A DNA stretch of 40,504 bases from the IMG/VR virus record IMGVR_UViG_2526164632_000038. The stretch is one strand, 5' to 3'. Of the stretch, positions 1,367 through 36,980 are shown in pieces. The stretch's first letter is position 1, and each line of letters opens with the position of its first letter. This DNA comes from a virus. Lineage: Duplodnaviria; Heunggongvirae; Uroviricota; Caudoviricetes. Under the pieces are notes generated by a model. It did no database searches. It was given only the letters and a program-made list of their open reading frames with translations, and was not told where the DNA came from. The translations under genes were made by a program, and so were the position numbers.

Positions 1367-2028
1367 GCTCCTACATCAAAACCACTGATGAATTCGTTAT
1401 CCATATCAAAACCAAAAAATTTTGAGCCTTCCGATGGGGTTTCCACCGAAGGAGTTTCAATGCCCCCCGCCCATACCCCGGCGGCTTTTACTGTGAGATA
1501 CCCCTGTTTAATTGCCGCAATTAACTCACGCGATACATCTGAAATATCAGTATCAGGAAAGACCCAGACCGATATCGTCATGTCCTGGTTATCGACTATC
1601 TGCATTCGCAGCCCGGATCCTGCTGTTGCCGCGTCAAGAATTGCCGGAAGCGAATCATTCCGTCCGTCCCAGTTATTAATCGCAATCTTCGCTTTAAGGA
1701 TGACACGATAAGTTTCATCGCTGAGGTACATGTATCCGGAATCAGGATCGTATGGTCCCTGCCATACACCCTGATCATATCCAAGCCCGTCGGTATCCCA
1801 GCTGAAATAAACACCTGAGATAGGCTGGCTGACAACACGGCTACGTCCGATCCACAATCCCAGAATGTCAAGTTGCACACCAACCGCAGAGTCAATATCA
1901 AATGCAGTAATCAGCCCTCTGGTGGCCGCCGCAACATCAATAAGCGGCCGGGTCATCAGATCAACATGTGCAAGAAATTTAGGTTTGGTGGCGTGGTAGT
2001 TCGTGATTAGTTCGGTGTATTTGCTCAT
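1348..2028 (-). CDS. Baseplate/tail-fibre-associated phage protein (resembles DUF2612-type proteins)
   Basis: 226-aa ORF between the baseplate J-like gene and the tail fibre, overlapping both neighbours; family resemblance is from memory. Confidence 0.45.
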
Positions 2029-3188
2029 GACTCCACCGTTATAACGATATTTTCCGGGGTACAGGACGCAGATTCGTTGTATCTGATATCAATGTTTGAT
2101 GACGACAAAGCCCCCGGAGATTTCCCAATCGTCAGTTCCTGAATATCGTAATAGCGTGCATTCCCGCCACTCACCACGCCAAGATTCGCCGGTGAGTAAA
2201 TGCGACTTAAAAGGACCGAATCACCAATCATCAGACTATTGATATAGTCGGAAATAGCCTGCTGGATCTGCTGCCCTATCTGTGAGGTATAACCCGTAAA
2301 AACTTTTAATTTAATCCGGGCATAAACAGGCACATCACTGGAACGCGAGAATTTGATTACATGGGGATTGCCGTATTTATCCGGAACCGTAACGGATGTT
2401 GTACCGTGAGTGGCTGTCCCCTGGCCTTTATTCCCTCTGATAGCCTGAGCAATATCCATCACATCACCGCCATCCACAATTACAGCAACAGAGTGTGGCG
2501 GTAACCCGTTACCGTCCTCCGAACCAGTATCGTTTTCATAGAGTTTGTGGCGGGTTACACCGGTAACATTAGAAACAGCACCATCCAGTGCTTCAAATGG
2601 GGTTATTGATGGCAACGCAACACTTTGCGACTGGCGGATACGTAACTCCGCATCAGTTTCTGCCGGAGAGCCAACAGTAGCCGCAGCAGGATTAGTTACC
2701 GAAACCCAGCCACGGGTTGGCGTATTAATTTCAGTGATAGTTCCAGCCAGCGCCGCCACTGCACCACTGACGGAACATGTTGCGGTCGCCATCACTGTAC
2801 CATCCACGCCGACCACCACTGAAGCAGGCAAACGCCATATCACACTATTACTGTCTTTCACGCTGCCATTAATGATGGTTGTTCCGGCAGTTCCTGTAAG
2901 AAGCAAATCAACCGTAGAATTCGTCGCGCCTTTACGTGAAATACCATTTATTTTCACGTTACTGGTCAGTGCGGCCCCATAGCCGGTTGCCGGTGAAAAA
3001 CAGTTGTAGACAGTTATCGCAGTATTATTGGCATCATGAATCGCCAGCGCCATCAGAGCCACCATCTGGCCGTCTTTACTATCCGGTTCGAGGTAGGTAG
3101 ACTGGCCCCCTGAATCTCCAGACAACCAGTATCACTTAAATAAGTGATAGTCTTAATACTAGTTTTTAGACTAGTCATTGGAGAACAG

Positions 3189-3554
3189 ATGATTGATGTC
3201 TTAGGGCCGGAGAAACGCAGACGGCGTACCACACAGGAAAAGATCGCAATTGTTCAGCAGAGCTTTGAACCGGGGATGACGGTCTCTCTCGTTGCCCGGC
3301 AACATGGTGTAGCAGCCAGCCAGTTATTTCTCTGGCGTAAGCAATACCAGGAAGGAAGTCTTACCGCTGTCGCCGCCGGAGAACAGGTTGTTCCTGCCTC
3401 TGAACTTGTTGCCGCCATGAAGCAGATTAAAGAACTCCAGCGCCTGCTCGGCAAGAAAACGATGGAAAATGAACTCCTCAAAGAAGCCGTTGAATATGGA
3501 CGGGCAAAAAAGTGGATAGCGCACGCGCCCTTATTGCCCGGGGATGGGGAGTAA
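3189..3554 (+). CDS. insC: IS2 transposase OrfA
   Basis: [41 protein letters not shown]... HTH protein; A6G slippery heptamer at 3506..3512 for -1 frameshift into orfB. Confidence 0.85.
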
Positions 3555-4417
3555 GCTTAGTCAGCCGTTGTCTCCGGGTGTCGCGTGCGCAGTTGCACGT
3601 CATTCTCAGACGAACCGATGACTGGATGGATAGCCGCCGCAGTCGTCACACTGATGATACGGATGTGCTTCTCCGTATACACCATGTTATCGGAGAGCTG
3701 CCCACGTATGGTTATCGTCGGGTATGGGCGCTGCTTCGCAGACAGGCAGAACTTGATGGTATGCCTGCGATCAATGCCAAACGTGTTTACCGGATCATGC
3801 GCCAGAATGCGCTGTTGCTTGAGCGAAAACCTGCTGTACCGCCATCGAAACGGGCACATACAGGCAGAGTGGCCGTGAAAGAAAGCAATCAGCGATGGTG
3901 CTCTGACGGGTTCGAGTTCTGCTGTGATAACGGAGAGAGACTGCGTGTCACGTTCGCGCTGGACTGCTGTGATCGTGAGGCACTGCACTGGGCGGTGACT
4001 ACCGGCGGCTTCAACAGTGAAACAGTACAGGACGTCATGCTGGGAGCGGTGGAACGCCGCTTCGGCAACGATCTTCCGTCGTCTCCAGTGGAGTGGCTGA
4101 CGGATAATGGTTCATGCTACCGGGCTAATGAAACACGCCAGTTCGCCCGGATGTTGGGACTTGAACCGAAGAACACGGCGGTGCGGAGTCCGGAGAGTAA
4201 CGGAATAGCAGAGAGCTTCGTGAAAACGATAAAGCGTGACTACATCAGTATCATGCCCAAACCAGACGGGTTAACGGCAGCAAAGAACCTTGCAGAGGCG
4301 TTCGAGCATTATAACGAATGGCATCCGCATAGTGCGCTGGGTTATCGCTCGCCACGGGAATATCTGCGGCAGCGGGCTTGTAATGGGTTAAGTGATAACA
4401 GATGTCTGGAAATATAG
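3512..4417 (+). CDS. insD: IS2 transposase OrfB (DDE catalytic domain)
   Basis: 301-aa ORF overlapping orfA in the -1 frame; IS3-family integrase-like core. Confidence 0.85.
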
Positions 4418-4559
4418 GGGCAAATCCAGTAGGCATCACTGCCATAAATCTGCTGAAAATAGCTAATCAGGGTGCTGAGTATCGTCTGATAATCAGGCGC
4501 ACTGATCCCCTCCGCGGTTACCTTTGCAGATAAACCGAGAGAATCAAGGTTCAGAGCCA

Positions 4560-4913: not shown

Positions 4914-5665
4914 CAGTTTACCCTATCGGTATTGCTTCCACCGCGCTGAACACCGCCATGAGTGTGCGTATCATCGATTGGCTTGCCGTTAGCCTTCACG
5001 CTCCCCAAAAACTCAACAGCACCAGTGATTTTTGAAGCCACACCAGAAACCACAGACCCCACCATGCCCCCCATCCAGGTTAACAGGCCATGAATGGTTA
5101 CTTTCTCAGAAAAATCAGCCAGAGGGGCAACCACATCAAGACCACCCGGAGCGACAATTTTAATTTTCCTGGTATCAGGATTAAGCTCAAAATAGGTGCT
5201 GCCGTCATCACTACGCAACTGTGTGGCACTGGTATTAATACCGCTAATCCTCCTTGCCTGCGACTGGGGACCGACAATACAAAACGCATCCGATAAATCA
5301 TGCATTCTGTCATCGACCGTCTCCTGTATCCCGCCACTCTGCCACCAGAAATCGATGCAGCGATCGGCAAAAATCACCAGGCATTCATCGCCGGCTTTTA
5401 CCGGGAAAGTTAACGTGCAGCCGCCGCCGCGCGGAAATACCACCGGCACATCCACCAGCAGCGGGTAATTTTTGGTTACGCGGTTGCCGTCGTTGTCGGT
5501 TTCAACCGAACGAATAGCAGGCTGCACAACCGCCGTCACCGCGTCAGGATCGAATGACTGAACGATGCCAGGCAAAGCGACGCGGATCTGGTTCTTTGTG
5601 GTTTCCCGCTCGGATTTGAATGTTTCGGCAAGGTCGCCGCTACGAGTCTGGTCTGATATGGCCAT
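4913..5665 (-). CDS. Baseplate assembly/spike protein (gpV-like)
   Basis: ATG at 5665 preceded by AGGAG (caggagtttatcaaATG); 250 aa; position in baseplate cluster. Confidence 0.45.
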   Translation of the reverse strand: MAISDQTRSGDLAETFKSERETTKNQIRVALPGIVQSFDPDAVTAVVQPAIRSVETDNDGNRVTKNYPLLVDVPVVFPRGGGCTLTFPVKAGDECLVIFADRCIDFWWQSGGIQETVDDRMHDLSDAFCIVGPQSQARRISGINTSATQLRSDDGSTYFELNPDTRKIKIVAPGGLDVVAPLADFSEKVTIHGLLTWMGGMVGSVVSGVASKITGAVEFLGSVKANGKPIDDTHTHGGVQRGGSNTDRVN

Positions 5666-5682: not shown

Positions 5683-5706
5683 ACAAAAAACCCGCCAAGT
5701 GGCGGG
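5683..5706 (-). terminator. Rho-independent terminator closing the AT-rich cassette
   Basis: Minus strand reads CCCGCCACTTGGCGGG followed by TTTTTTGTT. Confidence 0.55.
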
Positions 5707-5900
5707 TCTACAGGAACAACTCTAAGTTTATTTTTCTGTTTAAAATTGTCCAACTCAGGTTCTTTAACGCTTTCTGTCATGTAATCCAATCCACCAAAAG
5801 GTACTTCAAGCATTATACTGCTTTCATAATCAGCCATGGATTGCTCTGCTTGCGTTGGCTTGCTTTGCTGTGAGTTGTCATTATTTGATGTTGTCATCAA

Positions 5901-6122
5901 CTATGCCTTATTTATCAAAAGAAAAGTAACCGATAATATGAAAAAACCGAAAGATAACGCAATTCCTTCAAAAAGATAACGAGCGTAAACTGCCTTTTCT
6001 TTATGAAGACTTTCGATCAATTCAACAGCTTTACCATACTGAAACATATGGTATCTAAGCGTTTTAATTTTATCACCGTAAAATAAAAAATCATGCTCTT
6101 CTTTTCGCTTATGAATAGGCAT
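5901..6122 (-). CDS. Small membrane protein (73 aa) in AT-rich cassette
   Basis: ATG at 6122 (MPIHKRKEEHDFLFYGDK...) directly after the upstream stop; C-terminal hydrophobic helix LFEGIALSFGFFILSVTFLLI; AT-rich. Confidence 0.35.
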   Translation of the reverse strand: MPIHKRKEEHDFLFYGDKIKTLRYHMFQYGKAVELIESLHKEKAVYARYLFEGIALSFGFFILSVTFLLINKA

Positions 6123-6136
6123 TTTTGGTATATCTT

Positions 6137-6454
6137 TCAGTCCCCAAGTACGCCATAGGAAAAAAAGCACATAACAATACAAACAAAGCACAGATATGCA
6201 CAAAGTATAGATAATGTTAAAAACCAATTACTCTTTAGCCCACTTTTGAAATCAACAGTCCCAAATACAGCCAGTAGAGCAGAGGTTTCTACAGCTAAAA
6301 TAGCAAGAAGGTAGTTAACTTTGTCCTCAAGACGACGATATGTTGATTTTGCTTCCTCATATCTATCTTTATAATATGACGAAATAAAATCAGCGCCTAT
6401 AGTCTCAATTGCCTTTTGTTCTTCTGTTGTATCTATTGACGAACGCTTGCTCAT
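6137..6454 (-). CDS. Membrane protein (105 aa) in AT-rich cassette
   Basis: MSKRSSIDTTEEQKAIE... with two hydrophobic segments (LLAILAVETSALLAVFGTV; WFLTLSILCAYLCFVCIVMCFF); AT-rich. Confidence 0.45.
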   Translation of the reverse strand: MSKRSSIDTTEEQKAIETIGADFISSYYKDRYEEAKSTYRRLEDKVNYLLAILAVETSALLAVFGTVDFKSGLKSNWFLTLSILCAYLCFVCIVMCFFSYGVLGD

Positions 6455-6461
6455 TTCTCAA

Positions 6462-6809
6462 TCAACCAACAACTTTCTTACACGGGAAAGAGCCAATAAT
6501 TTTCGGAGCATCCATGCTGTTCTGCAACAACTGGACGTTCAGGAAACGCGTTTTAGTGCCAGGTCGATGGATATACTCGAACCCATAATTGTTGCCATCT
6601 TTGGCAGGCATCAGGTCCATTTTGATCTGCATGCCTGTACCGTCTTTACCCAACATTTTTACTTTTTGGGACGTTACTGTTTCGCCATTGATTTTAAATA
6701 ATGAATCAGGGATCGCATCCATACGAAAGTTGCCGCATTGCATCGTTATGGTGTTTGCACTTACACCAACAGACACTAATGCCAGCAATGAAAATATCCA
6801 TCGTTTCAT
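6462..6809 (-). CDS. Small secreted protein with N-terminal signal peptide (115 aa)
   Basis: ATG at 6809 with GAGAGGA upstream; MKRWIFSLLALVSVGVSA-NT signal-like N-terminus, no lipobox Cys. Confidence 0.5.
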   Translation of the reverse strand: MKRWIFSLLALVSVGVSANTITMQCGNFRMDAIPDSLFKINGETVTSQKVKMLGKDGTGMQIKMDLMPAKDGNNYGFEYIHRPGTKTRFLNVQLLQNSMDAPKIIGSFPCKKVVG

Positions 6810-17934: not shown

Positions 17935-18708
17935 TCAGGCGGGATAAGATTGGGAGGTGGGAAAAACGATTTCTTTATAACAGCGACAATTCGGGAGCTC
18001 GCCAGCGTGACCTGTCATGCCGTCAAGCGTTGGAGGTTTGCCCCATTCGACAAATTTACCTTCCATTTCCCGATGAGAATGCCTGACGTCACCATCTTCG
18101 GCTGTACGCCAGATATAACTATTCGAACCAATTGACAGCGCACGCGCCTGATCCAGCGCGCCGGTTGCACGTCCAAGTTCAGTACGGGCAATCAGGTCAG
18201 CTCTGGACTTTGCTATATCACCCGATGCGGCTATTTCTTTAGCAAAATATTCTGCTCTCCCACCGGTCACAACAGCTTCTGTCGCCCGATTCTGGATGTC
18301 GTACACCCTGTCAGCCGCCTCGAGGGGGAGCGATTTGATGTACTTGACCTGTTCGGCGATGATGGATTGCATCACCTGGCCCACAGGAGCGCTTTCCACA
18401 AGATTGCGGAGCTCGCGACTGATGTTCTTGCTGTGTTGCCGCCAAACTTTCTCGTTCTGCCGGGTTAGGTCCGCAGTAAAGTTTTCCGCGACCTTTGTCG
18501 CCCAGGGGGTGATGATTTCACTGTAGCGTTCCAGCGCCTCAATAATTTCCGTGATACTGTCATTTGAACCATCGTAGCGACCATTTACGATGTCTCCGAC
18601 CGCCCGCGCTATCCTGCGTAGGCTGGTTCGATAGCGGATTTCCGCCTGACGGTTCCTGCGGTTCGTCATCAGATTCGCCGATGCCGGGCGGCGCTTCATC
18701 TTCGGCAT
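17935..18708 (-). CDS. Head morphogenesis protein (Mu F / SPP1 gp7-like)
   Basis: 257-aa ORF directly after the portal; true start may lie downstream of the listed one. Confidence 0.5.
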   Translation of the reverse strand: MPKMKRRPASANLMTNRRNRQAEIRYRTSLRRIARAVGDIVNGRYDGSNDSITEIIEALERYSEIITPWATKVAENFTADLTRQNEKVWRQHSKNISRELRNLVESAPVGQVMQSIIAEQVKYIKSLPLEAADRVYDIQNRATEAVVTGGRAEYFAKEIAASGDIAKSRADLIARTELGRATGALDQARALSIGSNSYIWRTAEDGDVRHSHREMEGKFVEWGKPPTLDGMTGHAGELPNCRCYKEIVFPTSQSYPA

Positions 18709-31890: not shown

Positions 31891-32520
31891 TCACTCAGGA
31901 ATCTTAATCTTTCTCAATTCTTTATTTAGTTCACAGATCTTTTTCTTAGACGGGAAAGTATCATACATCCAAAAACCAACAGTCTCTAAAACTATTATCA
32001 TAACCATATACACAAGATAATTTAAAAGGCCTTCATTTTGCCCTATGGAAATAATGCAGATAATAGAAAAAAGGGTAAACAGCACAAAACACAGAAAGGA
32101 AAACAGACGACTAATAATAAATAAAAAACCTGAAAAATCAACATTAATAAAAAACACTCCGTTATCTTTCTCTATATAATTCTGAAGCTTAATCAACTGA
32201 TTTATATACTGTCTTTTTTCTAATCTATTGCAAATGTAAATAACATCTCTTCGGTTATAAGATGATTGCAATTTCAGCGCATCACGAATAATTTTATCAT
32301 TTATTCTTTTTTCTATGGCACTCTTATCCTCCTCATCCAGATAACGTTCATACTTAACTAAATATAAAATTAACTTCTTAACATATTTAGGCTCTTTATA
32401 CTTATAATTAAAAATGATCTTTCTTATCCAGACTCCCATAACAATCAAACATGAAAAAATATATCCAGCTATTTTCTCCAGATGCTCTGTATGGTCAATC
32501 AAGTATTGGATCATATGCAT
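31891..32520 (-). CDS. AT-rich reverse-oriented membrane protein (209 aa), unknown function
   Basis: Opposite strand to the surrounding operon; very AT-rich; N-terminal TM (IAGYIFSCLIVMGVWI), Lys-rich central domain, C-terminal TM pair. Confidence 0.55.
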   Translation of the reverse strand: MHMIQYLIDHTEHLEKIAGYIFSCLIVMGVWIRKIIFNYKYKEPKYVKKLILYLVKYERYLDEEDKSAIEKRINDKIIRDALKLQSSYNRRDVIYICNRLEKRQYINQLIKLQNYIEKDNGVFFINVDFSGFLFIISRLFSFLCFVLFTLFSIICIISIGQNEGLLNYLVYMVMIIVLETVGFWMYDTFPSKKKICELNKELRKIKIPE

Positions 32521-34694: not shown

Positions 34695-35456
34695 ATGCAG
34701 GAACTAACTGAAATGCCGATCACCTATCCATACCCGAGAGAAACTTTTCCTGACTTTTTGAGGGAGTGTGGGTTCACCAATTTTTCCCACGAACAGCGTG
34801 AGACTTGTGACTGCTATCGTTTAACGAATGGCGTAATTGTTAACCTTTACACCACCCGGACCATTCAGTTTCAAGGTAACCCTCAAGAACGTCCCAATGT
34901 TGAAACTGCAATAATGACCCATTTAGGAACGCCGCCCACGGCAACACCACTAGCCGTAGAACAGCCATCTGAGCTCCCCAAAAAGATATTCATTGTTCAC
35001 GGCCATGACCATACTGCAAAGGAGCAACTTGAGCTAATCCTTCATAAACTTGGATTACCAGACCATTTCATTTTGCAGAATACGGGAGGGACTGGACTCA
35101 CCATTATTGAAGAGCTTGAACGTGAAATTGGGCAAGGACAAACTGCTACCCGTTTCGGGATTGTTCTTTTGACACCTGATGATATGGGATACTCAAAGCG
35201 CGCCGGTGAAGCAGAAATCCAACCCCGCGCAAGACAGAACGTTGTACTCGAGATGGGTATGCTTCTTTCGTCCTTAGGGCGCAGCAATGTAGCAATCCTT
35301 CAGAAACAGCACCTAGAACAGCCTTCTGATGCTAACGGGATTTTGTATCTGAATTTCAACGACCATGTACGTGAAACAGTTCCTCGTCTAGTGCAACGGT
35401 TACAAAATTCTGGTTTCGAATTTACACAAGCTCAAATAGCTAACGCTTCCTCGTAA
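34695..35456 (+). CDS. TIR-like domain protein (candidate defence effector)
   Basis: C-terminal region KIFIVHGHDHTAKEQLELILHKLGLPDHFILQNTGGTGLTIIEELE...LLTPDDMGY...PRARQNVVLEMGMLL matches my recollection of the TIR-like nucleotide-binding family (FIVHGHD start, LTPDD, conserved Glu in NVxxExG); N-terminal 95 aa unassigned. Confidence 0.55.
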   Translation: MQELTEMPITYPYPRETFPDFLRECGFTNFSHEQRETCDCYRLTNGVIVNLYTTRTIQFQGNPQERPNVETAIMTHLGTPPTATPLAVEQPSELPKKIFIVHGHDHTAKEQLELILHKLGLPDHFILQNTGGTGLTIIEELEREIGQGQTATRFGIVLLTPDDMGYSKRAGEAEIQPRARQNVVLEMGMLLSSLGRSNVAILQKQHLEQPSDANGILYLNFNDHVRETVPRLVQRLQNSGFEFTQAQIANASS

Positions 35457-35690: not shown

Positions 35691-35885
35691 ATGTCTAATA
35701 TCGATAATAAGGGTTGGGGGTTCCCCGCTCTGTCAAAAAAAGCACATTTCTTTAATTCGGGGGAAGCCATATCACTATGCGGAAAATGGATGTTCATAGG
35801 TATCAGGATTGATGAATGGCATGACCATCCTGAGAACTGCGCTATCTGCATGAAGAAACGCAAAAAGCAGGAAGGCGAAAGCTAA
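35691..35885 (+). CDS. Small Cys-containing protein (64 aa)
   Basis: Strong SD AAGGAGGTG 5 nt upstream of ATG; stop overlaps the next start. Confidence 0.45.
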   Translation: MSNIDNKGWGFPALSKKAHFFNSGEAISLCGKWMFIGIRIDEWHDHPENCAICMKKRKKQEGES

Positions 35886-36172
35886 TGGCCTATGAACGTG
35901 AAAACCTAATCGAAAAGCACCTCGTCGCTGAAGTAAAAAAGGCTGGCGGGGTTGCCTTTAAGTTCGTATCCCCCGGTCGCCGCTCGGTACCAGATCGCAT
36001 TGTTCTGCTACCCGGCGGTCGTATCATTTTCGTTGAATGTAAATCCCCCGGCAAGCCACCACGGCCTGACCAGTTGCGCGAACACGGACGGTTGCGCGCG
36101 CTGGGCTTTACCGTAGTGGTGCTGGATAGCAAAAATCTGGAGGCCATTATTTTAAGCCGCAATAAAGGATAA
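35885..36172 (+). CDS. VRR-NUC-type PD-(D/E)xK nuclease
   Basis: 95-aa protein with VPDRIV ... FVECK motif. Confidence 0.55.
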   Translation: MAYERENLIEKHLVAEVKKAGGVAFKFVSPGRRSVPDRIVLLPGGRIIFVECKSPGKPPRPDQLREHGRLRALGFTVVVLDSKNLEAIILSRNKG

Positions 36173-36184
36173 AAGACTTATGCT

Positions 36185-36766
36185 TTAATCCGTATTTTTA
36201 ACACGTATTTCGAAACACCCTTTTAATTTAGCTATTTCCTTTTTAGAGGACATGATTGTGAATCTCATCCCTTTTAAATCATTAACAAATTCAAATTTTG
36301 CGCTATTTGACTCACAATCACCAACAACAAAACCACTACCAAATGAATTGAGCAACACTTTAGTATTACTACCATCTACCATATAATATTCGTTATTTTT
36401 AAATGCAGTAACCTTCCCGAATGTATAGCTCAATATCAACAACGTTATCACCCCTAAAGGAAAAGCTGACTTTAGGATTTTTAAATCGATATAATAAAAT
36501 ACGTTCTTATACTCTGCAAGCCTCCCAAATTTTCTAATGCTCTCCATATGATGTTCGTGTCTCTTACTATGGATTGGCATGGACACCACATTGTGATAAT
36601 TCAACAAAAGCATAGCAAATAATAAAATATCCTGAACACTCATCACAGAAGTTTTGGAGAAATAACCAAAAGGCCAATGAAATCCTATTATACAAATATT
36701 AGCCATTAGCATAACAACTATAAATACAATAAATGGAACATAATATTTCCCTTTCAAATCAAACAT
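36185..36766 (-). CDS. AT-rich reverse-oriented membrane protein (about 193 aa), unknown function
   Basis: Three hydrophobic segments in the N-terminal half, soluble C-terminal 80 aa; ATG at 36766 overlaps the upstream gene stop by 8 nt. Confidence 0.5.
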   Translation of the reverse strand: MFDLKGKYYVPFIVFIVVMLMANICIIGFHWPFGYFSKTSVMSVQDILLFAMLLLNYHNVVSMPIHSKRHEHHMESIRKFGRLAEYKNVFYYIDLKILKSAFPLGVITLLILSYTFGKVTAFKNNEYYMVDGSNTKVLLNSFGSGFVVGDCESNSAKFEFVNDLKGMRFTIMSSKKEIAKLKGCFEIRVKNTD

Positions 36767-36980
36767 CAACGCCGCATATAAGGCGCCGAGAAATAAAAAC
36801 TAAAAACAAAAGCCACACAGCCGAATACAATAGCGTATTTAAGTCTATTTTAATAAAAAGGTCTGGATAGCCATAATACGATGCAACACCTTTCTGAAAA
36901 GAATATGCCATCGCATAAGCTAACGCTGAAAACATAGTTAATAAAGAAACTTGCTTTGTAAATATTTTCGCCAGGGGCAT
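36759..36980 (-). CDS. AT-rich small membrane protein (73 aa), first gene of the reverse-oriented pair
   Basis: Two hydrophobic helices (VSLLTMFSALAYAMAYSF; LLYSAVWLLFLVFI). Confidence 0.45.
   Translation of the reverse strand: MPLAKIFTKQVSLLTMFSALAYAMAYSFQKGVASYYGYPDLFIKIDLNTLLYSAVWLLFLVFISRRLICGVDV

Follow-up and report, generated by a model that had tools for sequence, protein, structure and literature searches.

We report that a common enterobacterial prophage family carries a bounded, multi-allelic accessory slot within its baseplate operon, between the genes for the baseplate hub and the central spike. The slot was analyzed in IMG/VR virus record IMGVR_UViG_2526164632_000038, a stretch of 40,504 nucleotides (nt) that we refer to as the window, where it holds two genes named here BC and D. 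Intact BC encodes a membrane protein of 184 amino acids (aa) and intact D an acidic protein of 56 aa; the two are a conserved functional pair, not chance open reading frames (ORFs). Between the hub gene and the slot lies ORF A, a core backbone gene of this phage group and not part of the cargo. Our best guess on the mechanism, at about even odds, is that BC and D make up a cyclase-independent module of the abortive-infection or toxin-antitoxin type, with BC resembling PycTM, the membrane effector of Pycsar systems. The same region (positions 5683-6809) had earlier been described from the DNA letters, in what we call the original prediction, as a cassette of three small membrane or secreted proteins. 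That picture has to be redrawn: ORF A is a core gene, the two supposed membrane proteins are one broken gene, and the partner D had been overlooked.

A bounded accessory slot between the baseplate hub and the central spike

We compared 86 loci in which both the hub and the spike gene are present, 80 of them from IMG/VR and found with the hub protein. Hub identity is at least 96% in these 80 loci and 63-100% across the whole set. The locus order is hub, ORF A, cargo slot, terminator hairpin and spike (Table 1). The interval between hub and spike measures 1146 nt in the window and ranges from 393 to 1855 bp among the 86 loci, with at least 15 gene architectures. The minimal locus holds ORF A only; adjacency of the hub and spike genes in relatives, which the original prediction suggested checking, was seen in 0 of the 86. 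DNA similarity between cargo variants ends at the ORF A stop codon and returns at the first base of the terminator stem, and the slot between these points is the sole stretch swapped between related phages.

The slot also stands out by its composition. The guanine-cytosine (GC) content of the region holding BC and D (5710-6454) is 0.346, compared with 0.425 for ORF A, 0.543 for the hub gene and 0.527 for the spike gene, which corresponds to a z-score of -3.2 against all 745-nt windows of the 40.5-kb stretch. The AT-richness relative to the flanking tail genes that the original prediction had noticed is thus real (0.346 against 0.53-0.54 in the flanks), and the range of sizes and architectures in the 86 loci supports the view that the stretch is horizontally exchanged accessory DNA lodged between conserved baseplate genes.

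A clean terminator before the ribosome-binding site of the spike gene had likewise been predicted. A strong hairpin is indeed present, with nine pairs (six of them G-C) followed by a T-run, a folding energy of -17.2 kcal/mol and a z-score of -4.0; 0 of 200 shuffled sequences were as stable. Its sequence in the window is GACCCGCC-ACTT-GGCGGGTT, then the T-run. It is not the end of the cassette itself, however: a hairpin of the form AACCCGCC-N4-GGCGGGTTTTTTGCTTTCTGGAG precedes the spike ATG in nearly all cargo variants, with variable loop bases, and is kept even at the locus whose slot is empty and which holds ORF A only. Because it is kept across cargo types and with the empty slot, the terminator is part of the backbone and not of the mobile unit.

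Cargo other than BC and D includes a YafO-family toxin (E 4e-17) with an upstream gene of 190 aa, a DUF4282 membrane protein, a DUF2335 membrane protein, and two abundant protein pairs with no assigned role, in which a protein of family C2 or C3 is each time paired with one of family C1. The PHROG families of these other cargo proteins are all labeled as of unknown function. We had considered C1 to be a HEPN protein and dropped this assignment, as Pfam and PADLOC give it no support.

Three further observations concern the locus in individual relatives. In 80 loci (L012-L091) the hubs are at least 96% identical, yet the spikes next to the slot group into classes of about 94-100%, 78-90% and 66-70% identity; with a uniform hub and a spike in discrete classes, the slot therefore also acts as a mosaic junction at which spike alleles are exchanged. 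In a Salmonella locus (L105, GCA_006823965.1), ORF A, BC, the spike gene and downstream baseplate genes abut RecT and integrase genes, and this looks like a deleted prophage remnant that has retained the accessory locus. In the induced phage vB_EcoM-606R2 (L002, 825-1889), the hub is annotated as two coding sequences of 639 and 420 nt, which may reflect a frameshift or a sequencing error in the record.

The cargo in the window is a frameshifted membrane protein gene and a small partner gene

A 1.19-kb stretch matching the locus is present in 21 of 5426 complete Escherichia coli genomes at 98.7-99.8% identity, with BC intact, including that of strain O103:H2 12009, where the intact region of ORF A, BC and D lies at 3150882-3151965 of NC_013353.1. 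The intact genomes annotate three genes, of 115, 184 and 56 aa. In a base-by-base alignment over this stretch the window differs at two places only, a run of eight T that is reduced to seven and a run of six A that is reduced to five. The first (T8 to T7, at 6160-6166) is a -1 frameshift that cuts BC, the gene for 184 aa, in two. The pair of small membrane proteins in the original prediction (6137..6454 and 5901..6122) therefore exist as ORFs, but they are pieces of one gene, which is intact in the 21 E. coli genomes. The 5' fragment contains authentic residues 1-98, followed by seven out-of-frame residues and a stop; it encodes a cytoplasmic N-terminal helix with an invariant YRRLEDK motif, the first transmembrane segment (TM1) and most of TM2. 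The 3' fragment encodes the end of TM2, a cytoplasmic helical region and TM3, and the predicted ORF 6122..5901 starts at the internal Met112 of BC.

Gene D follows BC, starting at 5897, and is not among the genes named in the original prediction. In the window, the A6-to-A5 deletion at 5731-5735 removes its stop codon, expected at about 5729, so that the D ORF continues past the terminator and ends at 5640, within the first part of the spike gene.

Among IMG/VR contigs the T8 allele of the BC tract occurs in five, and neither T7 nor T9 was found there. A T9 allele is present in other isolates, where it yields a truncated protein of 115 aa (P0006, with 15 member sequences, including E. coli strain 2000-3039). 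With T7 in the window and T9 in P0006, the tract has been hit at least twice, independently. Over the 22.9 kb that align with the O103 prophage, only two of the 30 homopolymer runs that reach 6 nt or more are different, both within the cargo, and one of these is the longest run of the region. Since both cargo genes carry 1-nt homopolymer deletions, which may be real mutations or read errors, the module in the window is a pseudogene unless they are the latter. Phase variation at the T tract was considered and dropped as a designed switch, the tract being absent from other BC lineages.

Intact BC has hydrophobic segments at residues 46-69, 75-106 and 160-184 by hydropathy, with Lys/Arg-rich regions before the first segment and between the second and third. 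Its AlphaFold model (predicted local distance difference test score, pLDDT, 80.6) is all-helical: residues 10-66 and 129-183 form long helices, 77-105 a further helix and 118-126 a short one. The model suggests a cytoplasmic helical bundle that would be continuous with TM1 and TM3, plus a transmembrane hairpin. A word-indexed search returned 12 BC homologues, in which Y-R-R-L-E-D-K before TM1 and Glu56 and Ser58 inside TM1 are invariant, and an exhaustive profile search recovered 77 cluster representatives (E <= 1e-3) of 160-280 aa. The original prediction of envelope-directed products holds in that the locus encodes one Sec-type exported protein, ORF A, and one three-helix inner-membrane protein.

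BC and D are paired across divergent lineages

Wherever the context of a BC homologue was readable, the gene lies in this slot and a small ORF comes after it. The order ORF A, BC, D is found at 58% identity to BC (L005/L006) and, in Salmonella, at 52% identity (P0213, listed on 717 contigs). In Serratia (39% identity to BC) a lipoprotein gene takes the place of ORF A ahead of BC and D, and a still more distant pair, BC2 and D2 (27% identity to BC, BLASTP E 6e-9, hhalign 95%), sits in the same slot. Outside this phage group we looked up three short distant relatives of BC (P0016, P0018 and P0020), each of which has an ORF of 34-43 aa 1-4 nt downstream; the P0016 pair adjoins a gene for a Type ISP restriction enzyme in one contig, and in another its neighbor is a UvrD-like helicase gene. 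BC and D are thus co-oriented, tightly spaced and paired at all four levels of divergence within the hotspot as well as in three cases outside it.

D matches phrog_18231. Small proteins of the D type have an acidic N-terminal part, the motif VP-x(3-5)-two hydrophobic residues-[TL]ES-[YFVH], and a lysine-rich end; for D itself the conserved ending of the motif is given as TES-[YVF]. When a profile built from free small proteins of this type only was compared with the C-terminal tails of longer single-chain relatives of BC, it scored above 97.5% of composition-matched shuffles in 5 of 17. This is suggestive of a fusion, in which D would form the C-terminal tail of these longer proteins.

In the E. 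coli lineage D lies in frame with BC, the two being separated by TAG-TTG (3929-3937 in locus L001, equivalent to 5903-5895 in the window). Read-through of this amber codon would yield a fusion of about 242 aa, near the length of the single-chain relatives. We rejected stop-codon read-through as a general feature of the pair, as D is out of frame in L005, L007, L093 and L096.

BC weakly resembles membrane effectors of abortive infection

Against the PADLOC models, BC matched PycTM at E 2.6e-4 and the two-transmembrane (2TM) effector of CBASS at E 7e-3. Of 71 profile-detected relatives, 20, 12 and 11 match the three PADLOC PycTM models (best E 2.7e-6), and a few match the CARF-TM or RT-SLATT models. 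PycTM, the membrane effector of Pycsar, responds to cyclic CMP (cCMP) or cyclic UMP (cUMP) made by the cyclase PycC, and it has been described as a pore-former in the membrane that brings about abortive infection (PMC11224242). BC shares the multi-pass helical membrane architecture of PycTM, with its three hydrophobic segments and all-helical model. More broadly, it has in common with Pycsar PycTM, CBASS 2TM and SLATT effectors that it is a small helical protein with several transmembrane segments, to which the matches of its family are weak but repeated; the known effectors kill by membrane disruption in abortive infection (PMC11224242).

There are also differences. No cyclase was found in the hub-spike interval of any of the 86 loci or beside the distant relatives, and no other generator of a nucleotide signal lies near BC in the contexts examined. 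Unlike these effectors, BC has in every case either a partner gene for a tiny acidic peptide or a similar tail fused to it, and it sits in a phage tail operon. Pfam and NCBIfam gave nothing above threshold for ORF A, BC or D, a match to the Pfam family 8xMP is too weak to interpret (E 0.03-0.6) and this family is not mentioned in the literature found, and a BC profile search of the Protein Data Bank (PDB) sequences returned nothing relevant. Given this weak similarity, we class BC as PycTM-like in kind but not as a Pycsar component.

ORF A is an exported core protein

The original prediction of a signal-peptide protein at 6462..6809 stands: ORF A encodes 115 aa, with a single N-terminal hydrophobic segment (residues 4-23) followed by a V-S-A|N site. 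Its RefSeq name is STY1065/STY2022 family phage-derived protein. Homologues that share at least 55% identity number 386 across Enterobacterales; their signal peptides differ in sequence while keeping the pattern, and conservation is high in the mature domain, where Cys25 and Cys110 are invariant. The AlphaFold model (pLDDT 83) is all-beta, a barrel of seven to eight strands. ORF A was called in 69 of the 86 loci when only ATG starts were allowed, with further loci using other start codons, and it is found in every deposited phage of the group, namely SEN34, YP3, the vB_EcoM phages, Klebsiella phages Mulock and GZ7, and Wanchaivirus. A lipoprotein of 224-241 aa takes its position in six E. coli loci as well as in Serratia.

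As a Sec-exported protein, ORF A cannot be part of the virion, because virions assemble in the cytoplasm; it is probably a separate conserved periplasmic factor. It most plausibly acts in the periplasm on an incoming phage of its own kind or on a peptidoglycan hydrolase, and the lytic transglycosylase (SLT) domain of the tape-measure protein could be such a target. ORF A resembles the periplasmic peptidoglycan hydrolase inhibitors PliC/MliC and PhiA in its size of about 100 aa and its signal peptide. It differs from PliC/MliC in lacking a family sequence match or motifs: no Pfam family, MliC included, was matched at E <= 0.1-1, and the conserved blocks VTSQK, DGNNYGFEY and RFLNVQLLQ do not match what we take to be the MliC/PliC loop motifs. 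T4 Spackle would be a functional analogue only. An ORF A profile found nothing relevant among PDB sequences, and BFVD yielded nothing of use for this protein.

Opposite ORF A runs an antisense ORF (6447-6701, plus strand), and such an ORF is seen again in many loci (clusters C4, C9 and C17); most likely it follows from the conservation of ORF A and is not a gene.

A proposed mechanism and the points that weigh on it

We rate as slightly better than an even bet an overall explanation that combines a fixed ORF A, a swappable slot, an effector BC with its regulator D, and a fixed terminator. Recombination would exchange unrelated gene sets in the slot between ORF A and the hairpin. BC would be a membrane-permeabilizing effector of the kind of Pycsar PycTM or CBASS 2TM, not driven by cyclic nucleotides, and D would regulate it, either as an antitoxin-like inhibitor or as a sensor of the trigger. 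The pair would collapse the membrane when another phage infects, as a prophage-borne system of the abortive-infection or toxin-antitoxin type. ORF A would be exported by Sec and act in the periplasm as a disulfide-bonded beta-barrel. A more far-reaching version can be proposed tentatively, and we think it rather less probable: BC and D would form a self-contained two-gene anti-phage system, in which a PycTM-like pore-former is held under a 35-60-aa acidic peptide acting in trans or as a fusion, the hub-spike region would be a defense hotspot with at least 15 cargo types, and ORF A would block entry or wall damage by phages of its own kind.

Several results weigh against BC and D as a defense module. 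The Pfam family of PycTM (PF18967) was not matched at E <= 1 by BC, by the 71 relatives or by six close relatives; precomputed PF18967 labels on some relatives were not reproduced by direct hmmscan, and we do not count them as membership. A Foldseek comparison of the BC model with the PDB returned only long-helix noise and is uninformative. BC is present in 0 of 50,697 deposited phage genomes and matched no known defense system, and PADLOC gave no match for any other cargo protein, so the term defense hotspot draws on analogy and on a YafO toxin. Topology poses a puzzle as well: with its N-terminus inside and three transmembrane segments, BC is predicted to have its C-terminus outside the cell, and a free D that has no signal peptide fits awkwardly with a D that would be the fused C-terminal tail of longer relatives. 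The copy in the window is broken and does nothing now. Finally, co-transcription with the tail genes late in infection is the simplest reading of the expression of the locus, and expression of the cargo in the lysogen finds no support in the promoter scan, which is the main weakness of a claim of defense by the prophage.

Expression and alternative explanations

The genes of the locus follow one another closely, with 2 nt between the hub gene and ORF A, 7 nt between ORF A and BC, and 3 nt between BC and D. No sigma-70-like promoter rose above shuffle expectation upstream of ORF A or BC on the coding strand in the window, L001 or L005, in a scan by consensus that weak or non-sigma-70 promoters could escape.

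These data bear on the original prediction, which saw three independent envelope morons expressed from the prophage that bring about lysogenic conversion or superinfection exclusion by blocking the same receptor or entry route. Morons are characterized as independent transcription units that spread among phage genomes by horizontal transfer (PMC3594210). The locus agrees with a moron in that extra genes stand at a position filled differently in related phages, in DNA that is AT-rich, exchangeable and distinct in composition from the flanking genes; the products are exported or membrane-bound, a terminator lies downstream, and the lipoprotein that replaces ORF A in some relatives fits an envelope role for the first position. 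It departs from a moron in having neither a promoter of its own above chance nor a terminator of its own, the hairpin belonging to the backbone. The prediction of three separate genes is further undercut by the fact that the membrane ORFs are one frameshifted gene, with D as a cytoplasmic, acidic partner, and that ORF A is a core gene. BC, moreover, resembles effectors of abortive infection and not known exclusion proteins; this similarity to pore-forming defense effectors favors an abortive-infection or toxin-like role for the cargo over exclusion at the receptor. Exclusion remains a reasonable idea only for ORF A. We consider the model of three morons unlikely, one point in its favor being a precedent: HK97 gp15 is reportedly a moron inside a tail gene cluster. 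Classical tail-cluster morons of this sort resemble the present locus as compositionally distinct extra genes between tail genes, present in some relatives only and with envelope products. They differ from it in that no promoter of its own was detected here, that the terminator is a fixed backbone element, and that the slot is a multi-allelic hotspot with defined boundaries and not a one-off insertion.

A role in the lytic cycle, in which BC would depolarize or permeabilize the membrane late in infection, as an auxiliary holin-like, lysis-timing or late exclusion factor, and D would tune the timing, stays in consideration, given the missing promoter support for expression of the module in the lysogen. 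With a Q-family antiterminator encoded by the prophage, late transcripts should pass the hairpin, and the position of BC and D in a late operon with tight junctions and no promoter accords with such a role, as does the small multi-transmembrane architecture of BC. What makes this reading improbable to us is that the module is dispensable and absent from most relatives, including all isolated phages, that the prophage comes with a lambda-family holin and an endolysin of its own, that neither BC nor D matches a holin in PHROG or Pfam, and that BC-like/D-like pairs also occur outside phages, beside restriction and helicase genes.

BC and D could instead be a selfish toxin-antitoxin pair that serves its own persistence or that of the prophage and plays no part against other phages, which strikes us as quite improbable. 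The close coupling of a membrane protein with a small acidic partner would suit addiction, other relatives have a YafO toxin module in this slot, and recurrent frameshift alleles of BC (T7 here, T9 in P0006) are as expected of a costly toxic gene. On the other hand, the gene order, with a stable small peptide encoded after the toxin, is not typical of type II systems, and BC and D show no sequence match to known toxin-antitoxin families. Toxin-antitoxin and defense roles are, in addition, not mutually exclusive.

That the ORFs are baseplate structural or assembly proteins, or AT-rich filler with chance ORFs, can be nearly dismissed: the position inside the baseplate module and the conservation of ORF A in all relatives would fit the former, but BC and D are absent from most relatives and hence not required for virions, ORF A is placed in the periplasm by its conserved Sec-type signal peptide and its two invariant cysteines and is replaced by an unrelated lipoprotein in some loci, and the conservation of ORF A, BC and D at 27-60% identity with family motifs marks them as real genes.

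Relation to known hotspots and significance

In 2022, Rousset et al. reportedly described defense hotspots of temperate phages and satellites of the P2 and P4 types. The hub-spike slot resembles these in its fixed position between conserved bounding genes and in holding many unrelated small gene sets among near-identical phages, some of them toxin-like (YafO). It differs in belonging to another phage group, in lying between hub and spike inside a late operon, in carrying cargo without a system catalogued in PADLOC, and in framing that cargo with a conserved gene for an exported protein.

Prophage hotspots and membrane effectors are both of known kinds. We found no description of this locus in the literature on SEN34, Brunovirus, STY1065 and related tags, or PycTM, and, as far as the libraries and papers searched go, the hub-spike location, the pairing of BC with D and the family of ORF A seem not to have been described. 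If the slot is truly a hotspot for defense or toxin genes, it would provide a bounded place, from the ORF A stop codon to the conserved hairpin, from which to harvest new systems; prophages of this family are frequent in E. coli, Salmonella and Klebsiella, and the cargo families found are for the most part without annotation. If the proposed function of BC and D is correct, they would represent a PycTM-like effector run without a nucleotide second messenger, through a tiny peptide partner, and thus a distinct mode of control. ORF A would be of interest as a core exported protein of a whole phage group, hypothetically a periplasmic inhibitor or exclusion factor. For the window itself the practical meaning is small, its module being frameshifted and its prophage defective.

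The prophage and its other genes

The window represents a temperate myophage, a prophage of E. coli that belongs to the type of Salmonella phage SEN34; it shares 99.4-100% identity with one in E. coli O103:H2 12009. Its relatives include SEN34 (genus Brunovirus), Yersinia phage YP3 and several induced E. coli phages. The tail genes form a contractile-tail module, and every gene in this part of the window is on the minus strand (Table 1). The hub was assigned from synteny, in the order tape measure, Dit-like protein, plug, hub, and from a weak match, below threshold, to the Pfam baseplate hub family E217_GP41 (E 6.8e-5). The spike, called V-like in the original prediction, matches the Pfam spike N-terminal domain at E 6.7e-44 and also has a GpV Apex motif.

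Table 1. Features of the hub-spike locus and the neighboring tail genes, with positions in the window
Feature	Position	Strand	Remarks and evidence
Tape-measure protein with lytic transglycosylase (SLT) domain	10777-8768	-	
Dit-like baseplate protein	8768-8181	-	
Plug, Pam3 gp18-like	8181-7879	-	
Baseplate hub, 354 aa	7876-6812	-	left conserved flank of the accessory locus; weak Pfam match to E217_GP41, synteny
ORF A, 115 aa	6809-6462	-	starts 2 nt after the hub stop codon
Cargo slot	6461-5710	-	similarity breaks between cargo variants; matches the GC trough
BC, 5' fragment	6454-6137	-	alignment to the intact gene, family alignment, hydropathy
T7 homopolymer splitting BC	6160-6166	-	T8 in intact alleles
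BC, 3' fragment	5901-6159	-	residues ~99-184 of the intact protein
Gene D, ORF as found in the window	5897-5640	-	56 aa when intact
Intrinsic terminator hairpin	5709-5688	-	22 nt upstream of the spike ATG; right slot boundary
Central spike, 250 aa	5665-4913	-	right conserved flank; Pfam
Sheath-initiator-like protein	4913-4560	-	

Downstream of these genes, the baseplate J gene is split by an insertion sequence (IS) element of 1331 bp (3098-4428, plus strand), which is flanked by a 5-bp target duplication relative to the O103:H2 prophage and has two overlapping ORFs, one with an HTH_Tnp_1 transposase domain and the other with an rve integrase core. Because this element interrupts baseplate J, the prophage is tail-defective. 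Two more single-base differences from the O103:H2 prophage, at 18380 and 24283, lie outside homopolymers; the former is the site at which the O103 annotation has a frameshifted minor head protein, of which the window may hold the intact form.

A second defense-like gene in the same prophage lies in the replication module, between a DNA polymerase gene and a small downstream ORF (35885-36172). It encodes a protein of 253 aa (34695-35456, plus strand) with a TIR domain of the CAP12/Pycsar-effector type (PF10137, E 2.9e-31), and no cyclase is evident nearby. The window also contains two more low-GC islands, at 31891-32520 and 36185-36769, both on the minus strand and with GC contents of about 0.30 and below 0.40. 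They contain one membrane-protein ORF each (209 and 194 aa), with no Pfam match, opposed in direction to the surrounding replication genes, and look like additional accessory insertions.

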